64,000 nt of DNA, from contig OZ219747.1 in NCBI GenBank assembly GCA_964291265.2, forward strand, positions 2,528,001 to 2,592,000, written 5' to 3'. Origin of the DNA: Alphaproteobacteria bacterium (lineage in GTDB: Bacteria > Pseudomonadota > Alphaproteobacteria > SP197). The notes below the pieces were generated by a model. The model was not told where the DNA came from. It saw nothing but the letters and a program-made list of their open reading frames with translations, and searched no databases. The position numbers were made by a program, and so were the translations under genes. Numbering within the stretch: position 1 is the stretch's first letter; every line of letters begins with the position of its first letter. Positions 30,729 to 60,984 of this stretch are shown piece after piece.

Positions 30729-31928
30729 ATGGGCACACGCAGAGGAAACGACGGCAACAACCATCTCCACGGCGGCGGCGGCAACGACAAGCTCTACGGC
30801 GGCGGCGGCGGCGACCATCTCTACGGCGGCGGCGGCAACAACAAGCTCTACGGCGGCGGCGGCCGCGACCATCTCTACGGCGGCGGCGGCAACAACAAGC
30901 TCTACGGCGGCGGCGGCCGCGACCATCTCTACGGCGGCGGCGGCAACAACAAGCTCTACGGCGGCGGCGGCGTTGACCACCTCTACGCCGGCGCCGGCGA
31001 CGACACGCTCGACGGCGGCGACGGCGATGACACGCTCTACGGCGGCGACGGCAACGACACGCTCTACGGCGGCGCTGGCAACGACGGGCTTTCTGGCGGC
31101 GCTGGCGACGACAGACTTTACGGCGGCGCTGGCAACGACGGGCTTTCTGGCGGCGCTGGCGACGACAGACTTTACGGCGGCGCTGGCAACGACGGGCTTT
31201 CTGGCGGCGCTGGCGACGACGGGCTTTCTGGCGGCGCTGGCGACGACAGACTTTACGGCGGCGCTGGCGACGACACGCTCCGGGGCGGCGACGGCAACGA
31301 CACGCTCCGGGGCGACGACGACTTCTTCGTGCGGATCTTCGGCGACGACAAGCTCTACGGCGGCGCTGGCGACGACAAGCTCTACGGCGGCGCTGGCGAC
31401 GACAAGCTCTACGGCGGCGCTGGCGACGACACGCTCTACGGCGACTACTTCTTCTTCGGCATTGTCAACGTGCGGATCTTCGGCGACGACAAGCTCTACG
31501 GCGGCGATGGCGACGACAAGCTCTACGGCGGCGCTGGCAACGACAGGCTCTACGGCGGCGCTGGCAACGACAGGCTCTACGGCGGCGACGGCAACGACAG
31601 GCTCTGGGGCGGCACGGACAACGACACGCTCTACGGCACCGACGGCCACGACCAGCTCCACGGCGGGAAGGGCAACGACACGCTCCGGGGCGGCACCGGC
31701 AACGACCGCTTCATCTTCAACGCCGAAAGCGACCACGACACCATCGAGGACTTCGGCGACGGCGACGATACCATCGTGTTCAAGCAGAAGCTGGCCTACG
31801 CCGACATCATCATCAAGGACCGCGCCGGCAACGCCGTCATCACCGGCCCGAACGATGACTGGTCCATCACGCTTGAAGGCGTGACCGCCTCGGATCTCAC
31901 CGAAAGCGACTTTGAGTTTCTGGGATAG
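30729..31928 (+). CDS. RTX Ca-binding repeat protein
   Basis: More than 30 GGxGxDxL nonapeptides in 27/54-bp DNA repeats; C-terminus DTIEDFGDG...LTESDFEFLG. Confidence 0.9.
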   Translation: MGTRRGNDGNNHLHGGGGNDKLYGGGGGDHLYGGGGNNKLYGGGGRDHLYGGGGNNKLYGGGGRDHLYGGGGNNKLYGGGGVDHLYAGAGDDTLDGGDGDDTLYGGDGNDTLYGGAGNDGLSGGAGDDRLYGGAGNDGLSGGAGDDRLYGGAGNDGLSGGAGDDGLSGGAGDDRLYGGAGDDTLRGGDGNDTLRGDDDFFVRIFGDDKLYGGAGDDKLYGGAGDDKLYGGAGDDTLYGDYFFFGIVNVRIFGDDKLYGGDGDDKLYGGAGNDRLYGGAGNDRLYGGDGNDRLWGGTDNDTLYGTDGHDQLHGGKGNDTLRGGTGNDRFIFNAESDHDTIEDFGDGDDTIVFKQKLAYADIIIKDRAGNAVITGPNDDWSITLEGVTASDLTESDFEFLG

Positions 31929-48463: not shown

Positions 48464-49299
48464 CGAACCACCTGAAGACACCTCGCCGTTTGCAGGGTGC
48501 ACCGGGCGAGACCGAGGAGCCGGTCGGATTGCGGCATGATGCCTGCGCAACAGGAACGCCGCCTGGCTCGGACCGAGGCGTTCGAGGGCTGCCGGATGGC
48601 CGCTCACCGACCGGGGTGGATGGCGCAGCAATAGCACTCGGCCACGCGCGTCGAGGTGACGGCGGTTGGAATCCCAGGCTGCCATGTGGTCGTATGGCGC
48701 CACCATCGGGCACGGCGCGTTCATCGTGTCTTCGCGAAGCGTTGCCGTACCGCAAGATACGAGGATTGACCGAAGGCTCGGAACCCACCACAATCAACCA
48801 TCATTGCGTGACCGAACCGAACGCAAACGCTTGCGACTGTTCAACTTGAGCCATGATGTAGTATCTATGCCTCATTGGTACTTCGGGTGGTGGACACGGG
48901 CCGAAGAGGCGGCGAGAAAGGGGCGTTCAACAACATGTTCGGCCGGAACCAGAAACAGGATCACCGGGCCCCTTTGCCGGGTGAGATATTCCCTTCGATC
49001 GACTTCAACGCCCTCGGAAAACAACTCCGTCTGGAAGTGCGTGGGCTGAAGAACGGCAGGGCCGGCCATCCCGACAGCGGAGCCACCGAGTTCGACCCGG
49101 TTGAGAACGAGATCGTCAATACTGTCGACGCAATCCGAAGGCAGGGTCTCGCGCGAGCCGCCGATTACGAGAAGGTTTATCGAGATCGAATTACCGACGG
49201 CGGTGCTTTCGGACCGGGAATTCGGGAAATCGCCAACAACGCCGACACCGACTTCCGCAGGGGTAAGCGTTCGGCCACGCGGTGATTGTTGGTGATATT

Positions 49300-49606
49300 C
49301 ACCGGTTGAGGATGCGTTTGGGAGGCGCACCACGTGGCGGTTCGCTGTTGGGTCCGAAGACGATGGGTCCGGGTCGGGTTGCTCGTCGTTGGGGTGGCGG
49401 CAGGGTGATGAGGCCGTCGCGGTGCATGGCCAGAAAGGCGACATTCGCCATCATGTTCTTGAGGCCCCGTCGGGCTTGTATCAGCCGGTCTCGCGGCAGA
49501 AGGCGCGGGCGATGGCCGCACGGGTGGGGTGCTGGGTGATCAGGGAGCGCAACAGCGCCATCTCGTGCGCGGTGAAGTCACGGCCGTCGTAACGGCACTC
49601 GATCAC
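49300..49606 (-). pseudogene. DUF4338-associated N-terminal remnant inside IS66
   Basis: RYDGRDFT...TRAAIARAFCRETG*YKPDG...LAMHRDGLITLPPP, with stop and frameshift. Confidence 0.6.
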
Positions 49607-52059
49607 CCCGGTTCCATGAGGTCCCTTCGACGCTCCGGGGGCATCGACCATGGCAGCCACGGGTCGAGGTCATCCGGCGGCTTGCCGCCGTTCTGCGCGC
49701 AGGCCTCAAGCCACTCATGAAGCCAGCGCCGAACATTGATGTTGTTCATGGCAAGGGTGCCGATGACCGAGTACATGATGGCGGTGAAGGCGGCGCCTTC
49801 CTCGCTGTCGGAGCCGAAGCTCAGCTTTCTCGCGGTCACCGCACCCCGGAGGGCTCTCTCGGCAAAGTTGTTGTCCATGGGCACCTGGGGATGGTCGACA
49901 AAGACGCACAGTCCCTCGCGGTGACGGATCAGGGAACGCAAGGGCTTCGCTTCGCGTGCACCCTCGGGCAAGGCGTCGAGTTCCTCCTGAGCCTGCCTGA
50001 ACAGCGCCTCGACAGCCGCACGAAGGTCCTTCTGCAGGGCATTGAACCTCGCTGACTGACGCTTGCGTGCGGGATCGTAGTGCTTCAGCCGTTGCCCATT
50101 CAGTGTGTAGATCAGCGCGATCCTGTCGAGCCACTTGTCGCACCACTCTTCCAGCCCCTCCTGGCCTGCCGCAGCCTCGATCACATCGCGCCTGGAGTGC
50201 GCCCAGCAAAGGCAGAGGATCACCTTGCCATCAAGCTCACGCTCCAGTTTCCTGTAGACCACGTAGCGGTCGCAAACAAGGAAGACGACACCTTCGGTGG
50301 AGGCGAACAGCACCATGGCCACCCGGGCGCTGCGTGACGGGTCGATAAGGAAGAAGACGGAGTCGGCGCTGACCGCGGTCCACAGCCAGGCCTTCTGCGA
50401 GCGCCCCGAGGCCTTGAGGGACTGGATGCGCCAGCTGGTCTCGTCGCCGTGGCGCACCGTCAGCCGGTTCTGATGATCGAGGATGGCCTGAGCGAGAGGC
50501 GCGAACATCGGCGTCATCTTCTTCATGCCGCCAGCGATCGTTCCCGGCGCCATCGGCAGTCCCTGGTCTTCCAGCCATCGCGAGACCCGGCGCAGGGGAC
50601 GCAAGCAGGCGAAGCGCTCATAGAGCACGCATTCCCAGACACTGATGCCGAAGGGGGTATTCGCAAGCAAGCGCAAAGGTGGCGGCGCGATGATCTCCGC
50701 AGGCGCCGACGAACACTGACAACCACGGCGCCAACGCCCACGTTCAATCCGCCGGATATGAGCCTTGACATGGACCTCCATGATCGAGGTCTCGTGGCTG
50801 CCGTTGGCCACATAGGGCTCGCCGCAACACGGGCACGTGCGCTGCGATGCCGGTGGATCATGGCGTTCGTGCTTCTCCTTGAGCTTCGGACGCGGAGTGC
50901 GCCCGTGGCCGCTCTTGCCGGGTTGCTGACCCCGCTTGTTCCCGGTGCCTTCCTTCTTCTTCCGTTTCTCGCTCTTCGACCCGAAGCGCGCCGTCGCGTG
51001 CTTGGCACGCGTCCCGCGGAGATTCCTCAGCTCGCTCGCCTGTTCAGCGTTCTTGAGCTTCAGAGCGTCCCTTTCCTGCTCCAGCGCCTCCGCTCGGACC
51101 TGTCCACGCTTCACCTCCCGGCGAGCCTCCTTGAGCTGATCACGAGTGCGGTCGAGATGAAACTTGAATGTGCCCGCACGGGCACGGGCAGAATTCTTCG
51201 CACGGCGCAGGTCAGACGCGGTAGGGATGCGCATTGCTGCGCACCCCCCGCGCAGATCCGGACGTGGACGTTAATCCATCCGGCTCCTACCTCGGGTACT
51301 GGACGGCAAACCACTGGACTAGCCTGCGGCTTCCCGTATCCGATCCGCCGCCTGTGGCACGCTTGCCCGACACTGCGTTCGGTGCGTGCTTTAGCGTCCC
51401 GGATTCCCCTTGGTTGAGGCCCTTTCCTCCAGCGACTCCGCAGAAGCTAACGCTTCCTTGTTCGCCGCCTTCACAGGTACTACGGCCTCATCCGACTTCT
51501 TCAAACCGTACATCATAGGCTTCGGTTTTCTCCTTCCCCATGCGGTCCCGCCACAACCGGCGGGACGGTTTGAAGATCTCCCAGGGTCCCAACAGAAGGC
51601 GTGCGGACGTGCATGGGTTCTCTGACACCGCGGGGCTCGCCGACATCTCACCAAATCGATGCCTGCGATGTTGCCTTCGACCAATGCGAAAGCCTCGGCA
51701 CCCCGGATGATAGCTTTTTCGGTGCTCATTAGCCCTGCCCATCCGTACCGCTACCGACGCTTCGCCTGCCCCCTCGCGGGAACCGACGCACGGCTCGCGG
51801 AGAAACGTGGTTTGGTTACTCCTTCGTTCCAGGGGACTTTCACCCCCTACCTTCCGCCAGTTCGCCTGGCACACCGCATACGCGCTTCCGCCGCATCCGC
51901 ACGAACCCGCTCCGCCTCATAGAGCGCACGCCAGTCAGGCGCCTCGCATGACAAGGCCACTGACGCCCGACATAGGCCGTCACCACCTCCCGTCAGCTGC
52001 TGTGTCGCTCCGCGCGTCTCGGCAAAAGTCTTCATGGCCTCGACCATAATCGAGACCAA
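49603..52059 (-). CDS. tnpC: IS66 transposase split by a group II intron (exons about 52059-51875 and 51214-49603)
   Basis: GQQPGKSGHGR, CPCCG, HGDETSW, CWAHSRR, DNNFAERALR; exons join as AEARMR-DLRRAK; start uncertain. Confidence 0.85.
51215..51874 (-). ncRNA. ORF-less group II intron (660 nt)
   Basis: 5' GUGUG; domain V GAGCCGGAUGG...CCACGUCCGGAUC; domain VI GGGGGGUGCGCAGCAAUGCGCAUCCCUACC; candidate EBS1 CGCAU complementary to exon end AUGCG. Confidence 0.9.
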
Positions 52060-53186
52060 ACGAGTTTACCAGCTCTTTCTCAGACGATAGTCAGCAAGAC
52101 CCAAACCAACCAAAATCAGCCATCACCGAACGGCCGAACGCTTACCCGCAGGGAAGTGGACGCACGGCACAGCCGACTGAAGGACGCCATCGAGGATCGA
52201 CACAGGAGCGAAGCCGACCTTGCGCAATTCAAACAGGACAATAATCTGAACAGGGAGGCTCATGAGACAGGAGGCTTGTTGAAATGGTTTGCCATCTGTG
52301 TCATCATCGTTCTTGTAGAATCGGTGATGAATGGGGTTTTCTTCGCCGATGCGAATGTCGCCGGGCTGGCGGGAGGCACGATGACCGCCTTGGCTATTTC
52401 AGTCATGAATGTCGGAGCAGCGAGCCTTGCTGGACACGCCTTCCGACAAAAAAATCATGTCAAGGTTTCGCGTCGACTTACAGGATGGCTTGCACTGATT
52501 GTCGCAACCGGTCTTGCGGCGTTCATCAATTTTCTGGTAGGACATTTTCGTGATTTGGCGTCCACGATTCCCTGGAGTGAGGCCGCCGGTGCGGCGTTTG
52601 GGCGCGTGGTCGCAGGGCACATTCAGATGCAAAGTCTGGATGCTTGGCTCCTGACCGGCTTCGGACTGCTGATTGCCGCCATCGCCGTCTGGAAAGCATA
52701 TGGGGCCCTCGATCCTTATCCCGGTTACAGTCGTGTATTGGATAACTTCACCAGGAGACGGAACGAGTGGCAGGATTTGAAGGAGGAAACACTCGATGTC
52801 TTGATCGAAACTCGGGACAAGGCGATCACCGATCTGAAGGACGAGTGCGACGTACGCCGGAACCGTTTCGACGCCGCTCAGAAAGCCTGGACGGGATTCC
52901 TTGACCTTATGAGCCGACGGCGCGATTTCCTGAAGGAGTGCGACAGGGCGGCCAGCAATCTTCTCACCGTTTATCGGGACGCCAACCGAAAGGCGCGCTC
53001 CACGCCGGAGCCGGGTTACTTTCGGCTACCGTTCGGTTTCTCCCCAGAAGAGGAACCTGTCAAGCCGCCGCCGCCAGGTCCAGCGAACCCGGACCCCACT
53101 GACCTTGTGAAGGAAGCGGTGGAGCGTATCCATCAGGCGTGCCAGAGCGCCATGGATGCAATCGGTGATGATCGGAATAACCGAGC

Positions 53187-54008
53187 ATGAGCTTTCGGTC
53201 TCGACAACGTCGACCGTTGCGCGGGCGGAGCCAGGCGCCGAATTGGGTATGGATCCTCGCTATGGCTGTGGCCATTGCCGTCGCAGTCGTTTTAGCCGTC
53301 CTTGTGCAGTCATTCAAGGAAGAGGAAGTTGACGAAAGGCTGTGCCCCAAGGCCTCCGGCCCGGTTTCAGGAATGGCGGTACTTCTGGACCTGACCGACA
53401 CGCTGCAACCGGTTCAATACCAGAGGCTCCGGGACCTTCTCGACGATAGGATCAGGGATGCAAGTCGGGGCGCCATTATCTCAGTTGGCGCAGTGCGTGC
53501 GGATGCCTCGGAGCGGAACGCCGATTTCGTGCTCTGTAAGCCGGCGACGGGCGAAAAGGCGAACGAGTTCTACCAGAATCCGCGCCTGATCGAAGAACGC
53601 TACCGGGAGGAGTTTCTGGTGCCATTCAAGACCATCGTTTCGGCGATGCTGAACAGCCCTGAAGCGGACCGTTCTCCGATCATGGAATCGTTGCAAGCGT
53701 TGCTTGTCTCGACGCCAGGCTTTGTCGATGCGACCTATCCCCGGCGCGTCATCGTCGTCTCCGACCTGATCCAGAACAGCGAGACGTTCAGCTTCTATCG
53801 CAGCGACACCTGGCAGCGGTTTGTCCGCTCACAGGATGCGGAGCGACTTGCGGGCCGCCTGCAAGGCGTCGTGGTCGAGATATGTCGTATTCCGCGGTCC
53901 GGCGCCAGGGTCGACAAGGCGGTAGTGGACGATTTCTGGGCCAACTATTTCGACAGAGCAGGCGCAAGCGATGTTCTCACGTCCACTTGCTCGCTCGGTG
54001 ATCTCTGA
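53187..54008 (+). CDS. Membrane-anchored VWA-like protein
   Basis: Basic N-term and one TM; VLLDLTDT (MIDAS-like), SPIMESL, VIVVSDLIQNS; ATGA overlap. Confidence 0.7.
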   Translation: MSFRSRQRRPLRGRSQAPNWVWILAMAVAIAVAVVLAVLVQSFKEEEVDERLCPKASGPVSGMAVLLDLTDTLQPVQYQRLRDLLDDRIRDASRGAIISVGAVRADASERNADFVLCKPATGEKANEFYQNPRLIEERYREEFLVPFKTIVSAMLNSPEADRSPIMESLQALLVSTPGFVDATYPRRVIVVSDLIQNSETFSFYRSDTWQRFVRSQDAERLAGRLQGVVVEICRIPRSGARVDKAVVDDFWANYFDRAGASDVLTSTCSLGDL

Positions 54009-54041
54009 AGTCGGCAGCATCTCCAAAGAGGGTCTTCTGTC

Positions 54042-55421
54042 ATGCGCATCGGCTGGGTATCCGTGAACAAGGTTGCCCTTCTGGTCGCCTTTGTTATCGG
54101 GATCTGTGGCGTTGCATTGTTGAAGTGGGAAGGCTATCCGATCCATTGGACTATCGGATGGCCGATCTGCACCATCATTCTTTACTGGCTGATCATGCTG
54201 GCCAGGAACGATAGTGGTGTTTACGAAATCATCGGAGACAATTGCTATTATCTCGGTTTTGTATTCACGCTTACGAGCTTGGCGGTCACACTTTATCTGC
54301 TTCACAGGATCGGCGATGTGGAGACACAGGACCAACTGCCGATCCGGGAGGTGATTTCAGGTTTCGGCGTCGCGTTGTCGTCCACGATCGTGGGCATCGT
54401 GCTGCGGGTGTTGATGCTTCGCATGACCCCCGATCTGGCGCAGCAGGAGGGCGAGACGCGCGTCGATCTCGACCTCGCGGTACGCGACTTCCGCACTCAT
54501 CTCAGCATGAGCATCGGCGAGTTGAAACGCTATTCGATCGAAACAAGCCAAGTGCTGGCGGAACAGCGAGACGCAATCCGGAAAACGCTGGTGCAGGACG
54601 TGGATACGCACCGCCAAGCCCTGGAGTCCGGCACAACGGCGATGACCCGTTTCTCGGAAGAGACCGAAAGCAGGCTGTCGGAGCATTGGGTGGCCCTGGA
54701 AGAAGGCGTGAGCCGAGACGCCAAGGCGTATCGTGAAGCTGCGCAGGAAAGCGTTTCGACCTTTCGCGAGGCCTTGGAGGGGATTGCGGATACCGTTTCG
54801 GAGCGGCACGGCTTGGTTCGGGAAGCGTTGCAACGCAGCGGTGACGAGTACCACCAGGCACTCGAAACCGGCACGGCCGACCTGCGCCGTGTCCTTGGTG
54901 AAGCGATGCAGGCGTTCGCGGATTACCGCGAGGAGGCGGACCGGCTGGCGAGCCTAAGCCGGCAGATTTTCGAACAGACGGGAAAGAGCGCTGAAGCTGC
55001 CCGTAGTGAACTGGAACGCATGAATGCGTTGACCGGAAGCATGGCCGCACTGTCGAGCGAAGGCCGTTCCCTCGATGCGGCGCTGTCCAGCGTTGTCGGC
55101 AAGCTAGCAGTGGTCGAGGACGGCATTGCAACGAAGCTCGAACCCGCCGTTACGCGCATAAGCGAGGGCGCGACCGCTATTTCCGCGGTGCTGGCGGAGT
55201 CTTCCGGAAAACTCAAATGGGCGGCGGAGCGCTTCGAGGTGGCGGCGGAACGCACGGCTGCGGCCGACATGCAAACGAATATCGCGGGCGCAGCCGAACG
55301 CATCGCCGACGCGGCGGGAAGGCTGGAAACGGCGAACACCGCGCTGTCCGGGGCCGTAGAGAAACTCTGCGCACTGGCGGAGAGAAGAGCGCGGGGCATC
55401 GGCAGTATCTTCAACCGCTAG
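54042..55421 (+). CDS. MotA/TolQ/ZorA-like membrane protein with long helical tail
   Basis: YYLGFVFTLTSL and GFGVALSSTIVG helices; about 330-aa helical tail with roughly 40-aa periodicity. Confidence 0.75.
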   Translation: MRIGWVSVNKVALLVAFVIGICGVALLKWEGYPIHWTIGWPICTIILYWLIMLARNDSGVYEIIGDNCYYLGFVFTLTSLAVTLYLLHRIGDVETQDQLPIREVISGFGVALSSTIVGIVLRVLMLRMTPDLAQQEGETRVDLDLAVRDFRTHLSMSIGELKRYSIETSQVLAEQRDAIRKTLVQDVDTHRQALESGTTAMTRFSEETESRLSEHWVALEEGVSRDAKAYREAAQESVSTFREALEGIADTVSERHGLVREALQRSGDEYHQALETGTADLRRVLGEAMQAFADYREEADRLASLSRQIFEQTGKSAEAARSELERMNALTGSMAALSSEGRSLDAALSSVVGKLAVVEDGIATKLEPAVTRISEGATAISAVLAESSGKLKWAAERFEVAAERTAAADMQTNIAGAAERIADAAGRLETANTALSGAVEKLCALAERRARGIGSIFNR

Positions 55422-55441
55422 TCGAAGCAAGGAGTAGAGCG

Positions 55442-57193
55442 GTGCGCAGGTATTTCCGCGAGGGGACTTCCGGCAGCCAGTACCGCCGAGGCGCGATCAT
55501 GGGACTGACGGTCGCCGAGGCGTTCATGCTCGTCGCTTTCGTGTTGCTGATGCTGCTCCTGTTCTGGCGCCATCAGGTACAGGATGACATCGAACTGGTA
55601 TCTGAGCTTTCGTCAGAGGACAGGCGTGCGCTGTCGGAAGGCGCGGTTCCGGTGCCAGAAGAACGCCTGACGGTGTTGCAGGTACAGGCCCGGCTGGTCG
55701 AGGACCCGGCGAGGCGTGAACTAGCAGAAGCGGCTGCGGCTCTGGAGCCGTACGAGTTGAGAAAGCTGACGGACCTGGCGCGCGACCCGGATGCGCTTTC
55801 AACGGATGCGGTCCCGGTGCCGGAAGAACGGCTGGCGGCATTGGAGGAACGGGCAGGGTTGGTGGAAGACCCGAAACGGCGTGCATTGGCGGAAACGGCT
55901 GCGACCCTGGAGCCGGACGCGTTGCAAAGGCTGACGGACCTGGCGCGCGACCCGGATGCGCTTTCAACGGATGCGGTCCCGGTGTCGCCGGAGCGTCTGG
56001 CGGCGTTGGAGGATCATGAGCAATGGGTCGAGGAGAACGGGGACGAGATCGCTGAAGCGCTGAATTTGCGTCGGGCACTCGATCCAGAGGGAGAAGACAG
56101 CAATGAGGTGTTGCTGGACCGGATTCGGGACTTGCTGACCAAGGAAAGCGACGGCGACAGTCGGCTTGCGGCAGTCAAGGACCGGCTTGCCGAAGACGCG
56201 GCGGCGCGCGGAGAATTCATCGACAATCTGAAACGCGAACTTGCGGCGGACGTGGGGAAGGCGGGCGGCCAGATCGATCCGTCCGGCCGGGTCGTGTTTC
56301 CCGAGACAGTGGTTTTCGAGACCGGCAGTGCCGTTATTCCACTGAGTTTCAAGGCTGTGCTGGATGACATCTGCCCCCGATGGCTGGCGGAGCTCAGGGA
56401 CTCGGCGGATCGGTTCGATATTGCCGAGATCCGCATCGAGGGCCATTCTTCGCCGGAATGGGCCAGTGCGCAAACGAAACGGGACGCATGGGTGGCGAAT
56501 CTCGGCCTGTCGCAGCGCCGGGCGCAATCGGTGCTGGCGCACTGCCTGGATCATGCGGCAGGAACGCCGCTCGGTGAGTGGGCGCGCGGCAAGCTCACGG
56601 CGGTCGGTTACTCGTCGTCCAGACCCGTAACGGTGGACGGAAAGGAAGATCCTGGCGCATCGCGGCGCGTCGTGCTCGGCCATGAATTCAACCGGGACAG
56701 GCTGATCGCTGATCTCGGAGACGTCGGGCGGATGGAAACCGGTAGCGGCGCGACCCGGCCCCTCGGCGGCAAGGCCCTCGTCATCGACGCTGACACGATA
56801 AAGATCGGGGAGGCCGCGACCCGGATCCGGCTTGACGGCATTGACGCGCCTGAACTCCAACAGACCTGTATCGCGGCGGACGGGTCCGAATGGCCCTGCG
56901 GCCGAGAGGCGGGCCGGGCACTGGAAGCGCACATTGCTGGCCGCAATGTGGTCTGCGAGCGCCTGCGTCCCGGTCTGATGCGGCTCTGGGGCGTGTGTCG
57001 GATCGACGGCGAGGAAGTCGAGTTGAATCGTTGGGTGGTGGAGGCGGGGTGGGCCTTCGCGTTCGTCGAGTTCTCAAGGGACTATGCCGGCGATGAAGCC
57101 ACCGCCCGCATGGCGCATCGGGGAATCTGGTCCGGTCAGGTGCCCGTACCACCTTGGGAGTGGCGGCGGAATCGGAAACGCGCCGCGCCGTGA
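55442..57193 (+). CDS. MotB/ZorB-like OmpA-domain protein fused to a thermonuclease (SNase) domain
   Basis: TM GLTVAEAFMLVAFVLLMLLLFW; OmpA FETGSA, IRIEGHSS, NLGLSQRRAQSV, GYSSSRP, SRRV; SNase VIDADTI, RIRLDGIDAPE, WVVEAGWA, RGIWSG, PWEWR. Confidence 0.85.
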   Translation: MRRYFREGTSGSQYRRGAIMGLTVAEAFMLVAFVLLMLLLFWRHQVQDDIELVSELSSEDRRALSEGAVPVPEERLTVLQVQARLVEDPARRELAEAAAALEPYELRKLTDLARDPDALSTDAVPVPEERLAALEERAGLVEDPKRRALAETAATLEPDALQRLTDLARDPDALSTDAVPVSPERLAALEDHEQWVEENGDEIAEALNLRRALDPEGEDSNEVLLDRIRDLLTKESDGDSRLAAVKDRLAEDAAARGEFIDNLKRELAADVGKAGGQIDPSGRVVFPETVVFETGSAVIPLSFKAVLDDICPRWLAELRDSADRFDIAEIRIEGHSSPEWASAQTKRDAWVANLGLSQRRAQSVLAHCLDHAAGTPLGEWARGKLTAVGYSSSRPVTVDGKEDPGASRRVVLGHEFNRDRLIADLGDVGRMETGSGATRPLGGKALVIDADTIKIGEAATRIRLDGIDAPELQQTCIAADGSEWPCGREAGRALEAHIAGRNVVCERLRPGLMRLWGVCRIDGEEVELNRWVVEAGWAFAFVEFSRDYAGDEATARMAHRGIWSGQVPVPPWEWRRNRKRAAP

Positions 57194-58228: not shown

Positions 58229-59686
58229 CTAGCTGGCCACTTTTAATCCGCCTTTCCTACCAAGGCGGTACCCGACCCTGAAGACATCCGGGATGTTGAC
58301 ACGGCCGTCGCGCATGCGAAGGAAAATTCCCAAAGATTCAAGGTCCAGACGAACACCCGGGGCCCGTTCACGAATATGTTTAGGCGGTAGTTTCAACGCA
58401 TTCTGTTCCACGTCTTCGGCAAGGTGGTCGAGAACGCGATTGTCGCTCCACCGCGCCTCAATCTCTTCGAATCTGCAAGGCACTGTCAAGCCGACAAGGC
58501 TCTTCAGAACCTCATCCACCCAAGGATAATCTTCTTTGACCTCCGCCACCTGAATCTCAGATGCCACCTGCACCCCGCGCTTAATGCTCTCATAGTGGAG
58601 AGTGTACTTATGCTCCGGATAACGCTCCGCCGTGTCCTCCGCAGCTGTGCGCAGTGCTCGAAGAAATGAACGCGGACTTACCCTTCCTGCAGTATCTCCA
58701 AGATGGCTAGAAATCCAAGTATAGGGAAAACCTCTTCTCCTATTTCGGCCCATGAAAGGACCGGATATGTCATGGAATTTCTCTCTTTGAACGTCGACAT
58801 TCGAAATCAGGCGTCGGGACACTTGGAACAGTTTTTTATCCCCAACGTCGATGGAGCCCAAGTTCCCACATCCGACAAACTTGCGAAACTCCTCTGCGTG
58901 GTTCCCATTGACGAGGCTATGCCAGAAAAGACCATACAGCTCAGAAGTCGGCCAACTCAATTCAACAGAGGAGGAAAGGATCTTTGACGCGTCCGGAAAA
59001 TTGGCGATCTGGGTTTCGTCGACCTGATCGGGTCGCAAGAACATCTTGACACGGAGCCGACGGTAGAATCGCATATCAAGCGCCGTCTGCATCAAACCAC
59101 GAATTAGCCGATACATATCCTCCCAATCGTCCGAGCAGCGGTCCAGGGCATCGAACAGAAACAAAAAATGGGTGTTTTTATCGTTAAATTCGTTATCGCG
59201 TTCAAGGAAGAGGTTTGCAATCTCTTCCGGTTCCTGATCGACATAGTTCAGGCGTGCTTCCCAGGACTCCTGGTCCCGGATTGGGTGGTCGGTGCTAGCG
59301 AGCTGCCAAGCCTGTACCGTACGCCAGATGGTCCTTGGCTCCGCCCTAGCATGCAAGAGCCGCCTGATTACATCCTTGCCCGGATAACCATCCGGTGCTG
59401 GTCTGACACCGAATCCTGTCCGCACCTCGGTATCTTCGCTCAGCATTGATCCACGGCTGGTTTGATAGACAAGATGACGAATTTTCCGTTCCTGAAGTGC
59501 GGTCCACCAGAATGTTTTGCCGGCACCGCGCATACCGGTGACAAGCATGTTGTCCGGGTTCATCGCCTTCACATGAGATGGGGGAAGGTACACATGGGCG
59601 ATGTCGGGGTATTCGGCATGACTTGTCTCTTCCGGCAACTGGGCTAGCGCAGTTCGCGCTCCTTCAACATTGATCAGTCCGCTCAC
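58229..59686 (-). CDS. P-loop NTPase (STAND-like)
   Basis: TGMRGAGKT, FLFDALD, MFLRPD, VSPRSFL, NIPDVFRVG; lower GC than flanks. Confidence 0.8.
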   Translation of the reverse strand: MSGLINVEGARTALAQLPEETSHAEYPDIAHVYLPPSHVKAMNPDNMLVTGMRGAGKTFWWTALQERKIRHLVYQTSRGSMLSEDTEVRTGFGVRPAPDGYPGKDVIRRLLHARAEPRTIWRTVQAWQLASTDHPIRDQESWEARLNYVDQEPEEIANLFLERDNEFNDKNTHFLFLFDALDRCSDDWEDMYRLIRGLMQTALDMRFYRRLRVKMFLRPDQVDETQIANFPDASKILSSSVELSWPTSELYGLFWHSLVNGNHAEEFRKFVGCGNLGSIDVGDKKLFQVSRRLISNVDVQREKFHDISGPFMGRNRRRGFPYTWISSHLGDTAGRVSPRSFLRALRTAAEDTAERYPEHKYTLHYESIKRGVQVASEIQVAEVKEDYPWVDEVLKSLVGLTVPCRFEEIEARWSDNRVLDHLAEDVEQNALKLPPKHIRERAPGVRLDLESLGIFLRMRDGRVNIPDVFRVGYRLGRKGGLKVAS

Positions 59687-60984
59687 ACCTGACTCCCTTC
59701 ACCGCCAGCATTAACACGTTGGTCAAACGACTTCAGGAATCTTCCATACGCAGAGTTAACGGTTTCCTCGTCAAGGTCTTGAAGCAATGAGCCCGCTGCG
59801 AAGCCAAGAGTCCAAGCTATTTCCAAAGGATCGTGGGGCGCGTTTTCTTCGTACAAATCAAACGAAAACTCACTGATTGAGTCGTTTGTTGGATTCACTT
59901 CGTCATAGAGATGGTCCCGAAATAGATCCCATGACCGCGTTCGGAACCCCTCAACATACTCTTCCCTATTGGGTGCAGGTGTCAGTGCTGATACGACCCA
60001 CACTCGCTCCCTGATGCGTTCCGCCAGGTTTCTCTCGCGCCAGTGGCGGAACAAAATCCCATAGTCCGTCCAAGTGCTTTCCGAATCGGTAGCGAATAAC
60101 AACGCTTGCGCTCGCAAGTCGGTAACAGATGCCGCCGCGATGTCGTGCAGGCCATTGCGGCTCTCCAGCAACACCACCGTTGGCTTGAAGACAGTTTCCA
60201 AATTGACCAGGACGCGTTCGAGGCGGTCCGTCCACGGTTCGTGCACCTTGTCCATGTACACACGCCCTAGCTTAGCCAAATACTCCCCAGGATCGTGGCC
60301 GTGCGCGGGCACAACGCGGACATCGCCATCGAAGTTCTGAGCCCAGGACGGAGTAGCAAGCATATCTTCAATTATCCGATTTCCTTGCCCAACAAGATCC
60401 TCGACGAACCAGTCGGTCAAGCCGAACTTCGGCCACCGTTCTTTCTCCAGCATCGCTGAGGAAAGACCGGGTGATTCAAGATCCATGTCAACTGCCAGCA
60501 CTCGTTCCCCCTTGCGTGCAAGGTGCCACGCAAGCACTGCGGCTGTCGTGCTGCGTCCCATACCACCCTTGACGGAATAGAGGGTGACACGTACGGACCC
60601 GGAGTCTTCCGCGGGGTCTCCAACGGTCCACCAGCCACGCCCCGTCACCAGACGGTCGACTAGGAACACGCCCGAACTGATCTCCTGAGCCGTATCGTCT
60701 AGACTCCTCAGCAACGCATCACCGATGAACAGTACGCCCTCTTTCTCAGGGTAGCCACGAACACCTAAAGCCTTGTTTAGAGAGATGGCAAGCCGCTCCA
60801 GCGCGTTACGCACAACCAGATTTTCCTCGAGTGTATCCGATGCCGATATGCGCACCTTACCGAGCAAGTCACGCACCAGATAGAGGTGATCGATCCCGTC
60901 AGGGACGCCCCCCTCTCCCAAATCTGCGATCGCGTTTTTGACGCGGCTCCGCATGTCGTCGAAAGGGATGAAGTCGTCTCTCAC
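59683..60984 (-). CDS. ParA/MinD-like ATPase (KGGxGR variant)
   Basis: YSVKGGMGRST, AVDMDLESPGL, LLESRNG; overlaps the next gene. Confidence 0.85.
   Translation of the reverse strand: MRDDFIPFDDMRSRVKNAIADLGEGGVPDGIDHLYLVRDLLGKVRISASDTLEENLVVRNALERLAISLNKALGVRGYPEKEGVLFIGDALLRSLDDTAQEISSGVFLVDRLVTGRGWWTVGDPAEDSGSVRVTLYSVKGGMGRSTTAAVLAWHLARKGERVLAVDMDLESPGLSSAMLEKERWPKFGLTDWFVEDLVGQGNRIIEDMLATPSWAQNFDGDVRVVPAHGHDPGEYLAKLGRVYMDKVHEPWTDRLERVLVNLETVFKPTVVLLESRNGLHDIAAASVTDLRAQALLFATDSESTWTDYGILFRHWRERNLAERIRERVWVVSALTPAPNREEYVEGFRTRSWDLFRDHLYDEVNPTNDSISEFSFDLYEENAPHDPLEIAWTLGFAAGSLLQDLDEETVNSAYGRFLKSFDQRVNAGGEGSQV

Follow-up and report, generated by a model that had tools for sequence, protein, structure and literature searches.

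What would a bacterium gain from ending the wall-binding subunit of an ion-driven membrane motor in a nuclease? The question is raised by a cassette of four genes, g1 to g4, all present in the order g1-g2-g3-g4 on the forward strand of a 64,000-nucleotide stretch of an alphaproteobacterial genome (assembly GCA_964291265.2, contig OZ219747.1, positions 2,528,001 to 2,592,000), hereafter the window. The last gene encodes a ZorB-like subunit that runs, in a single frame to position 57193, from a transmembrane helix and stalk through an OmpA-like domain into a thermonuclease (SNase) domain, as a first-pass annotation of this DNA had described. Our strongest result is that unrelated nucleases have repeatedly been fused to this wall-binding motor subunit. 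We give a probability of roughly 0.5 to the reading that the cassette encodes a 5:2 ion motor, anchored to peptidoglycan, which keeps a nuclease in the periplasm to act on DNA entering the cell.

A scan of GTDB with an alignment of g3 returned 144 confirmed relatives, the best 80 of which were used, representing 79 distinct loci (L022 duplicates L021). A nuclease is fused behind the g4 OmpA-like domain in 31 of these 79 loci, comprising 25 SNases and six GmrSD_C-type HNH domains, so that the fusion, whose frequency the first-pass annotation had proposed to check, is recurrent and a one-off is ruled out. A database protein (P0205) carries endonuclease I (EndA) at the same C-terminal slot (Pfam E 2e-29), at another locus (L141) an SNase is joined to an OmpA domain of a more distant subtype, and a close SNase domain is present in 52 of 88 database homologues of g4. 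In a FastTree phylogeny of g2 and g3 from 92 loci, the effector types occupy separate branches, each intermixed with nuclease-less members, and in a quick tree built from 83 SNase domains the fused SNases are divided among several clades. Because the SNase, HNH and EndA families are unrelated, comparison of these sequences indicates that fusion occurred several times, with at least three independent events.

Nucleases also accumulate beside the cassette. With profiles built from the fused tails, a free nuclease gene was detected no more than 3 kb away at 11 of the 48 loci that lack a fusion, and in 1 of 40 control windows of 10 kb taken at random from 13 genomes (Fisher p 0.005, with kin among the loci not independent); the EndA profile included one of the scanned loci itself (L074), whose EndA was confirmed by Pfam. 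Two of the 11 (L005 and L038), with a stop between OmpA and SNase, resemble fusions that have been split, a third (L041) is a fragment, and the other eight bear N-terminal export-type leaders, judged by eye. A thermonuclease gene directly adjoins the cassette on all three plasmid loci inspected, out of 24 plasmid records with g3. In a draw of 400 other genomes of the class, g2 was found in 25; motor genes accompany it in 14 of the 26 g2 loci, and five of these 14 have a nuclease fused or adjacent. In one of the five (L147), a PLD-family nuclease-like gene with an export-type leader precedes g1. In two pairs of sister loci (L031 versus L035, and L023 versus L050), one member carries a fused SNase, and in its sister this fusion is gone and a free exported SNase of another clade lies next door, as if in compensation.

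The subunit that receives these nucleases is nearest to the ZorB proteins of type II Zorya. Its start is most likely the GTG at 55442, with AGGAG upstream, yielding 583 amino acids, as in a database copy (P0125). It has the ZorB hallmark of a single transmembrane helix plus an OmpA-like domain, and matches the PADLOC models ZorB2 (E 1e-31) and ZorB1 (E 1.9e-22), Pfam OmpA (E 9.8e-7) and NCBIfam ZorB2, the latter at 85 bits against a cut-off of 400. The best Foldseek match of its AlphaFold model (mean predicted local distance difference test, pLDDT, 84) is a type II ZorB structure, 8vvi (E 1.6e-10), followed by staphylococcal nuclease and other OmpA-type domains; the OmpA domain itself is nearer to ZorB than to ExbD, TolR or MotB. 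Stalk length ranges from 79 to 409 amino acids among 70 homologues. The critical transmembrane aspartate of ZorB, which packs against a Ser/Thr ring (PMC11890865), is absent; a glutamate stands in its place within the motif GLTVAE, exactly as first annotated, and is conserved in 90 of 90 matches to this helix (87 by pattern and three read off the sequences). Glutamate for aspartate is a conservative change and may work alike. A charge bias of only two versus one basic residues before the helix fits an N-in/C-out topology, as do the basic residues preceding the g2 helix, and would place the OmpA and nuclease domains of g4 in the periplasm. This placement, already proposed in the first-pass annotation, is strengthened because unrelated export-type nucleases occupy one slot. 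In a set of g4 variants (L072, L079, L080, L138-L140, L142, L146, L147 and L149-L153) the glutamate motif is followed by a non-OmpA periplasmic domain with a PPCW ... CRF motif, ExbD/TolR-like by eye, for which Pfam gave no match in the eight checked.

The partner subunit g3 has conserved polar residues: in its last two transmembrane helices, Thr76 and Thr115 are retained in 144 of 144 relatives, Ser79 in 142 of 144 and Ser/Thr114 in 144 of 144. Among natural membrane proteins, ZorA, ExbB and TolQ align best to the model of this region (pLDDT 90), with ZorA 8vvi_C at Z 10.0 (root-mean-square deviation 2.5, 96 residues aligned) and ExbB, TolQ and MotA chains at Z 8-9; the top Foldseek matches are TolQ chains at E 0.05 or weaker. 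PADLOC matches to ZorA are confined to the tail (E 4e-5 or weaker), a search of the PDB with the g3 profile returned coiled-coil matches only, and a complex prediction with four copies of g3 (residues 1-165) and two of g4 (residues 1-70) scored 0.08, which is evidence neither way. The motor reading thus leans on gene order, the identity of g4 and the conserved residues more than on any single score. The ZorAB-like motor pair of the first-pass annotation is supported by the g4 matches and the g3 model, and the cassette likely works like ZorAB.

The nuclease domain of the window copy scores weakly in Pfam, at E 0.0025 and 18.7 bits versus a cut-off of 21. Foldseek aligns the model to staphylococcal nuclease at E about 5e-6, with a target TM-score of 0.64-0.70 consistent with the OB-fold. 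A PDB search with the single SNase sequence gave no match; a profile of 31 SNase domains (A8) aligns the Staphylococcus aureus nuclease at E 1e-11, fixing the residue numbering. Its residues D19, D21, R35, D40, E43 and R87, which we take to be the active site, are all retained in the window and in 41 of the 47 members of its SNase clade (Shimodaira-Hasegawa approximate likelihood-ratio support 100). The annotated motifs are likewise present (DADT for DxDT, the arginine, IDAPE, and PGLMR where DxYGR is expected), and the domain, which the first-pass annotation had considered might be inactive, is predicted to be active.

Table 1. Features of the cassette and its surroundings, in window positions.
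Feature	Position	Strand	Remarks
g1, 5' part	48935..49262	+	Helical N-terminal region, truncated by the insertion sequence; N and C parts form a single open reading frame in intact relatives
IS66-type element	49263..52145	-	2883 bp, terminal inverted repeats; junctions backed by run X1 contigs
Target duplication of the IS66-type element	49255-49262 and 52146-52153		8 bp
Transposase open reading frame	49603-51234		Inside the IS66-type element
Group II intron D1-D4 fragment	51616-51840		Inside the IS66-type element; Rfam RF02005
g1, 3' part	52154..53190	+	3-4 transmembrane helices and C-terminal coiled coil; no known family
g2	53187..54008	+	Single N-terminal transmembrane helix (residues 21-39) with basic residues ahead, then predicted periplasmic VWA-like alpha/beta domain
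g3	54042..55421	+	ZorA/TolQ/ExbB-like; 4 transmembrane helices, polar residues T76, S79, T83, S114, T115, long helical tail
g4	55442..57193	+	583 amino acids: transmembrane helix (residues 22-40) with Glu26, helical stalk, OmpA-like domain, SNase domain
g4 stalk tandem repeats	55627..55956	+	Two of 165 nt (55 amino acids), 78% identical
g4 OmpA-like domain	56234..56713	+	Predicted peptidoglycan-binding, nearest type II ZorB (PADLOC ZorB2 E 1e-31; Foldseek 8vvi)
g4 SNase (thermonuclease) domain	56744..57190	+	D449, D451, R463, D468, E471, R514 correspond to S. aureus nuclease D19, D21, R35, D40, E43, R87
PDC-M28B and PDC-M28C candidate pair	58229-60984	-	1 kb downstream of the cassette
IS66 end	61021		Directly upstream of the PDC-M28 pair
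RTX-like repeat open reading frames	2-517 and 30729-31925		Glycine-rich, amid transposase genes

Under the mechanism that we propose, a ring of g3 around a pair of g4 would form an inner-membrane, ion-driven 5:2 motor with ions flowing through Glu26, and g4 would anchor to peptidoglycan and keep the nuclease in the periplasm, there to degrade DNA on its way through the envelope, be it injected phage, gene-transfer-agent, conjugated or transforming DNA. Injected DNA is normally shielded in its channel, and the gene transfer agents of Rhodobacter release their DNA into the periplasm; motor action could bring the nuclease to DNA that the entry channel would otherwise protect. The g2 protein, periplasmic and VWA-like, might act with g1 as a sensor or scaffold module, and nuclease-less cassettes might use exported nucleases encoded elsewhere; the genome considered here holds three other SNase-like genes. 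More tentatively, the cassette can be seen as a new envelope restriction machine, in which a Glu-type 5:2 wall-anchored motor with an exchangeable periplasmic slot for SNase, HNH or EndA would draw on ion flow to expose phage, gene-transfer-agent or plasmid DNA and cut it ahead of its arrival in the cytoplasm. Three unrelated families on a wall-bound end point to periplasmic DNA destruction as a recurring selected function and, if this is true, 5:2 ion motors gain a new output.

A number of observations weigh against this reading, and its weakest point is that genomic context does not support a role in defence. We scanned up to three genes per side of the 79 loci (403 proteins from a simple gene caller, PADLOC 2.0, E 1e-25) and compared them with the 40 control windows (236 proteins). 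The defence-island enrichment for which the first-pass annotation had suggested looking was not seen: credible defence neighbours occur at 8 of 79 loci (L023, L043, L045, L049, L052, L063, L066 and L081) versus 2 of 40 controls (L183 and L193), p=0.49 with a small control, and none was found among the closest 14 loci (L002-L015). A loose count gave 11 of 79 versus 5 of 40 (p 1.0), or 6 of 40 controls if a dropped helicase (L192) is counted. ABC-type mad3 matches (L013, L025, L039 and L061; controls L170 and L194), RmuC (L014), an ankyrin protein (L038) and a cysteine desulfurase (L069) had been dropped before the count. Guilt by association for phage defence therefore fails, and the cassette attracts exported nucleases instead. 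Anti-phage activity stays a candidate function; type I Zorya, for its part, stops neither conjugation nor transformation (PMC11946911). The nuclease itself is dispensable: at 37 of 79 loci, some of them truncated at a contig end, neither SNase nor HNH nor EndA was seen out to 3 kb, and the database homologues P0163, P0164 and P0172 retain no more than a 64-residue stump of the SNase. As an optional module it may not be the core effector. The SNase clade of the window has lost the D-x-Y of the DxYGR loop (D83 and Y85), with hydrophobic residues instead, which may alter substrate binding. The sequence of g3 is unmatched to ZorA or MotA outside the coiled coil (Pfam MotA_ExbB E 0.05), its structural matches, with Z up to 10, are tied with designed helical bundles, and 12 of the 26 class-draw loci have g1-g2 without motor genes. 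Finally, the cassette is decaying in this population, with an insertion sequence in g1 and, in a run from the same study as run X1 (X3), a 5155-bp deletion from g1 into g3.

Three rival explanations draw on the same evidence, and we consider each of them unlikely. In the first, the motor would be a Zorya-like sensor of phage envelope damage whose g3 tail signals to g1 as a pore or abortive-infection effector, the nuclease being optional. The constancy of g1 and g2 (76 of 80 loci), set beside the frequent lack of a nuclease, fits such a design, as does a ZorA-like g3 tail of 86-452 amino acids among relatives that comes with no conserved soluble partner; in Zorya, ZorA tails relay the signal (PMC11946911). 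This sensor would, however, leave three unrelated nuclease fusions on the periplasmic side unexplained, its g1 is unmatched to known pore effectors (no PADLOC match; TM-score 0.25 to SLATT_2 in the Atlas), and it shares with the nuclease reading the missing enrichment in defence islands.

An equally improbable second explanation invokes an energised envelope machine that digests imported DNA for phosphate, nitrogen or nucleosides, or trims it for uptake. The fused families include broad, export-type nucleases, the neighbours are mostly metabolic or mobile genes, and one plasmid locus has comEC at a distance of about 5 kb; yet the neighbours of the 80 loci include no recurring receptor of the outer membrane, no recurring nucleotidase and no recurring transporter of nucleosides or phosphate, and the distribution is patchy and fast-decaying. 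The third, to which we likewise assign a low probability, is a force transducer of the Ton/Tol type that would serve envelope upkeep, adhesion or secretion, g2 being its working part and the nucleases plasmid or island cargo or tools for biofilm DNA. Precedents exist in TolQ-like motors beside transmembrane-tethered vWA proteins of unknown function (PMC12204202), the OmpA domain is swapped for another periplasmic domain in the many g4 variants listed above, and a lipoprotein-like gene precedes the motorless, distant g1-g2 in each of the 7 loci from other classes. Against it, co-location of cargo cannot produce 31 in-frame fusions of unrelated folds, the g4 OmpA domain is nearest to ZorB, and the SHLS and transmembrane-aspartate motifs of the published vWA transducers were not seen in g2. 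A one-off read-through or assembly artefact with a dead SNase, which the sub-threshold Pfam score, the altered DxYGR loop and the stops in L005 and L038 might suggest, is very improbable, and as an artefact it is refuted because the fusion recurs, the more so as most homologues carry the SNase, most of its clade keeps the full active site and a run X1 contig spans the OmpA-SNase junction without differences.

How does a nuclease-bearing wall-anchored motor compare with known systems? It shares with type II Zorya a predicted A subunit with a transmembrane core, polar Ser/Thr residues in its helices and a long helical tail, and a B subunit with one transmembrane helix and an OmpA-like domain, a type of domain that binds peptidoglycan (PMC11946911). 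It differs in the glutamate of the B helix, the four transmembrane helices of the A subunit, the long, variable B stalk, two extra membrane genes and the lack of ZorC, ZorD, ZorE, ZorF or ZorG; moreover, the nuclease is fused on the predicted periplasmic side, whereas that of Zorya is recruited in the cytoplasm. No Zor proteins were detected among the 403 neighbours, in agreement with the first-pass annotation, which had found no adjacent ZorC/D/E or flagellar genes. By gene content and transmembrane residue, the cassette is not Zorya I, II or III. A flagellar stator was considered and rejected: the genome, 100% complete, has no MotB-plug or flagellin match (PF13677, PF00669), and these profiles match in 4 of 14 genomes as controls.

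Other envelope systems resemble parts of it. SNIPE (PD-lambda-1) is likewise an inner-membrane-anchored nuclease, cutting DNA during injection, but as described in the available text it is one protein with a cytoplasmic GIY-YIG domain and no motor (PMC13190303). In HXS, a peptidoglycan-binding periplasmic effector, HxsA, blocks phage DNA entry, with proposed electrostatic DNA binding and radical-SAM maturation, and its abstract names no nuclease or motor (PMC13128918). In Zorya and SNIPE alike the nuclease works from the cytoplasmic face, and the role described for the HXS effector is to bind DNA. Mobile elements encode the exported, periplasmic DNases IdeA, SxnA and Dns, which destroy incoming DNA and block transformation and are described in the available text as single enzymes without the tether or motor predicted here (PMC12378983). 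The operons of TolQ-like motors also pair the gene for a motor A subunit with one for a membrane-anchored protein of the vWA type, but their vWA proteins carry SHLS or a transmembrane aspartate, and neither an OmpA-nuclease B subunit nor a g1-like gene is described for them in the portion available (PMC12204202). The available part of PMC12505986 mentions neither a nuclease nor a VWA protein. A full-text search, whose scope excluded supplements and most subscription papers, found no description of the cassette or of a nuclease-fused ZorB or MotB in the titles and opening lines of abstracts.

All four genes occur together in 76 of the 80 GTDB loci; three of the four incomplete ones run into contig ends, and in the fourth (L054) the 1.7 kb of sequence present contains no g1-g2. 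The flanking genes vary between loci, with transposases and ABC-type ATPases as the chief recurring neighbours, and no conserved fifth gene or soluble partner was found among the neighbours of the 80 loci. Within its genus, the g3 transmembrane region is present in 1 of 23 genomes, that of the window; 13 other apparent matches were rejected, at E 8.6e-7 or worse and nearly all in the coiled coil of the profile. Elsewhere the same region matches 1677 clusters at 50% identity, with no match to g3 in a phage collection, and the cassette family is large and unannotated. Paracoccus, Ruegeria, Thalassovita and Marivivens include named isolates with intact copies, which make effects on plasmid and gene-transfer-agent gene flow directly testable. 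GC content is lower in the cassette than in its flanks in 40 of 66 loci, a weak trend (median -1.6 points), and tRNA genes lie near 13 of 79 loci (20 kb) versus 7 of 40 control windows (10 kb), which is not an enrichment.

The neighbours are chiefly housekeeping or mobile genes. Thirty of the 81 genes flanking the motor loci of the class draw were compared with Pfam; they include a subunit of a type I restriction system, an AbiEii gene and a gene of the OLD family, at three loci, along with integrases and transposases. At one locus an HNH-fused cassette is flanked by a PD-Lambda-1 (SNIPE-type) gene (L049:5946-7373) directly on its upstream side and by a Lamassu LmuA gene on its downstream side, and three loci (L081, L082 and L083) have ArdC-type zincin genes, markers of plasmid leading regions, within a few kilobases. 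In the window, the cassette is followed by the PDC-M28 candidate pair, a KGGVGR-type ATPase and an Sll1717-type ATPase matched by PADLOC at E 1e-132 and 1e-169, whose A gene may have been displaced by the adjoining IS66 end. The source for the PDC names is 10.1101/2024.01.29.577857.

The remaining two genes bear out their first description in part. For g2, annotated as a membrane-anchored VWA-like protein, the anchor stands and the VWA identity is a lead: a match of 0.84 to a VWA_2 cluster in the Atlas and a profile (A9) whose top PDB matches are collagen VI (E 0.0012), CACHD1 (E 0.04) and ITIH4 (E 0.28) suggest it, as does an hhalign probability of 26% against VWA over the first 48 columns only. 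Pfam VWA matched none of 62 homologues, and another profile (A4) found nothing in the PDB and reached 1% in hhalign. D-x-T-D, SPI(M)E and SD motifs and two cysteines are conserved. In two g2 homologues (L041:8790-9944 and L051:8787-9941) Pfam places an OmpA domain in the middle of the VWA-like domain, and a third (L060) shows the same split pattern. Neither g1 nor g2 matched any PADLOC model at E 0.1.

The g1 family has no match in Pfam, NCBIfam, PADLOC, the PDB or the Atlas. Its description as a protein with four transmembrane helices and a coiled coil holds for three segments, which a hydropathy scan finds in the 3' part; a glycine-rich fourth falls under the threshold. Similarly, four genes are present as annotated, but their tight spacing at g1 is true only once the IS66-type element that interrupts it at 49262/52154 is disregarded. 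The two parts sum to 455 codons, in line with the 454-457 amino acids of intact relatives, and because g1 is split this copy of the cassette is probably impaired.

Relatives of g1-g2 also occur apart from the motor. Seven loci from other classes of the phylum (L239-L245) have a three-gene operon without motor genes, consisting of a lipoprotein-like gene (mostly with a glycine-zipper-type N-terminus, by eye), a g1-like membrane protein and a g2-like protein with a signal peptide. At another locus (L157:6556-10635) a motorless g1-g2 pair is followed by a VirD4-type coupling-protein-like gene, recognized by eye, which suggests that the pair is carried on a conjugative element. The RTX-like repeat open reading frames of the window are unlinked to the cassette in relatives. 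The IS66-type element, at whose junctions the run X1 contigs terminate, has seven more full-length copies in the genome at 99.4-99.9% identity, and with its 5' group II intron fragment it has spread as a composite in at least eight near-identical full-length copies.

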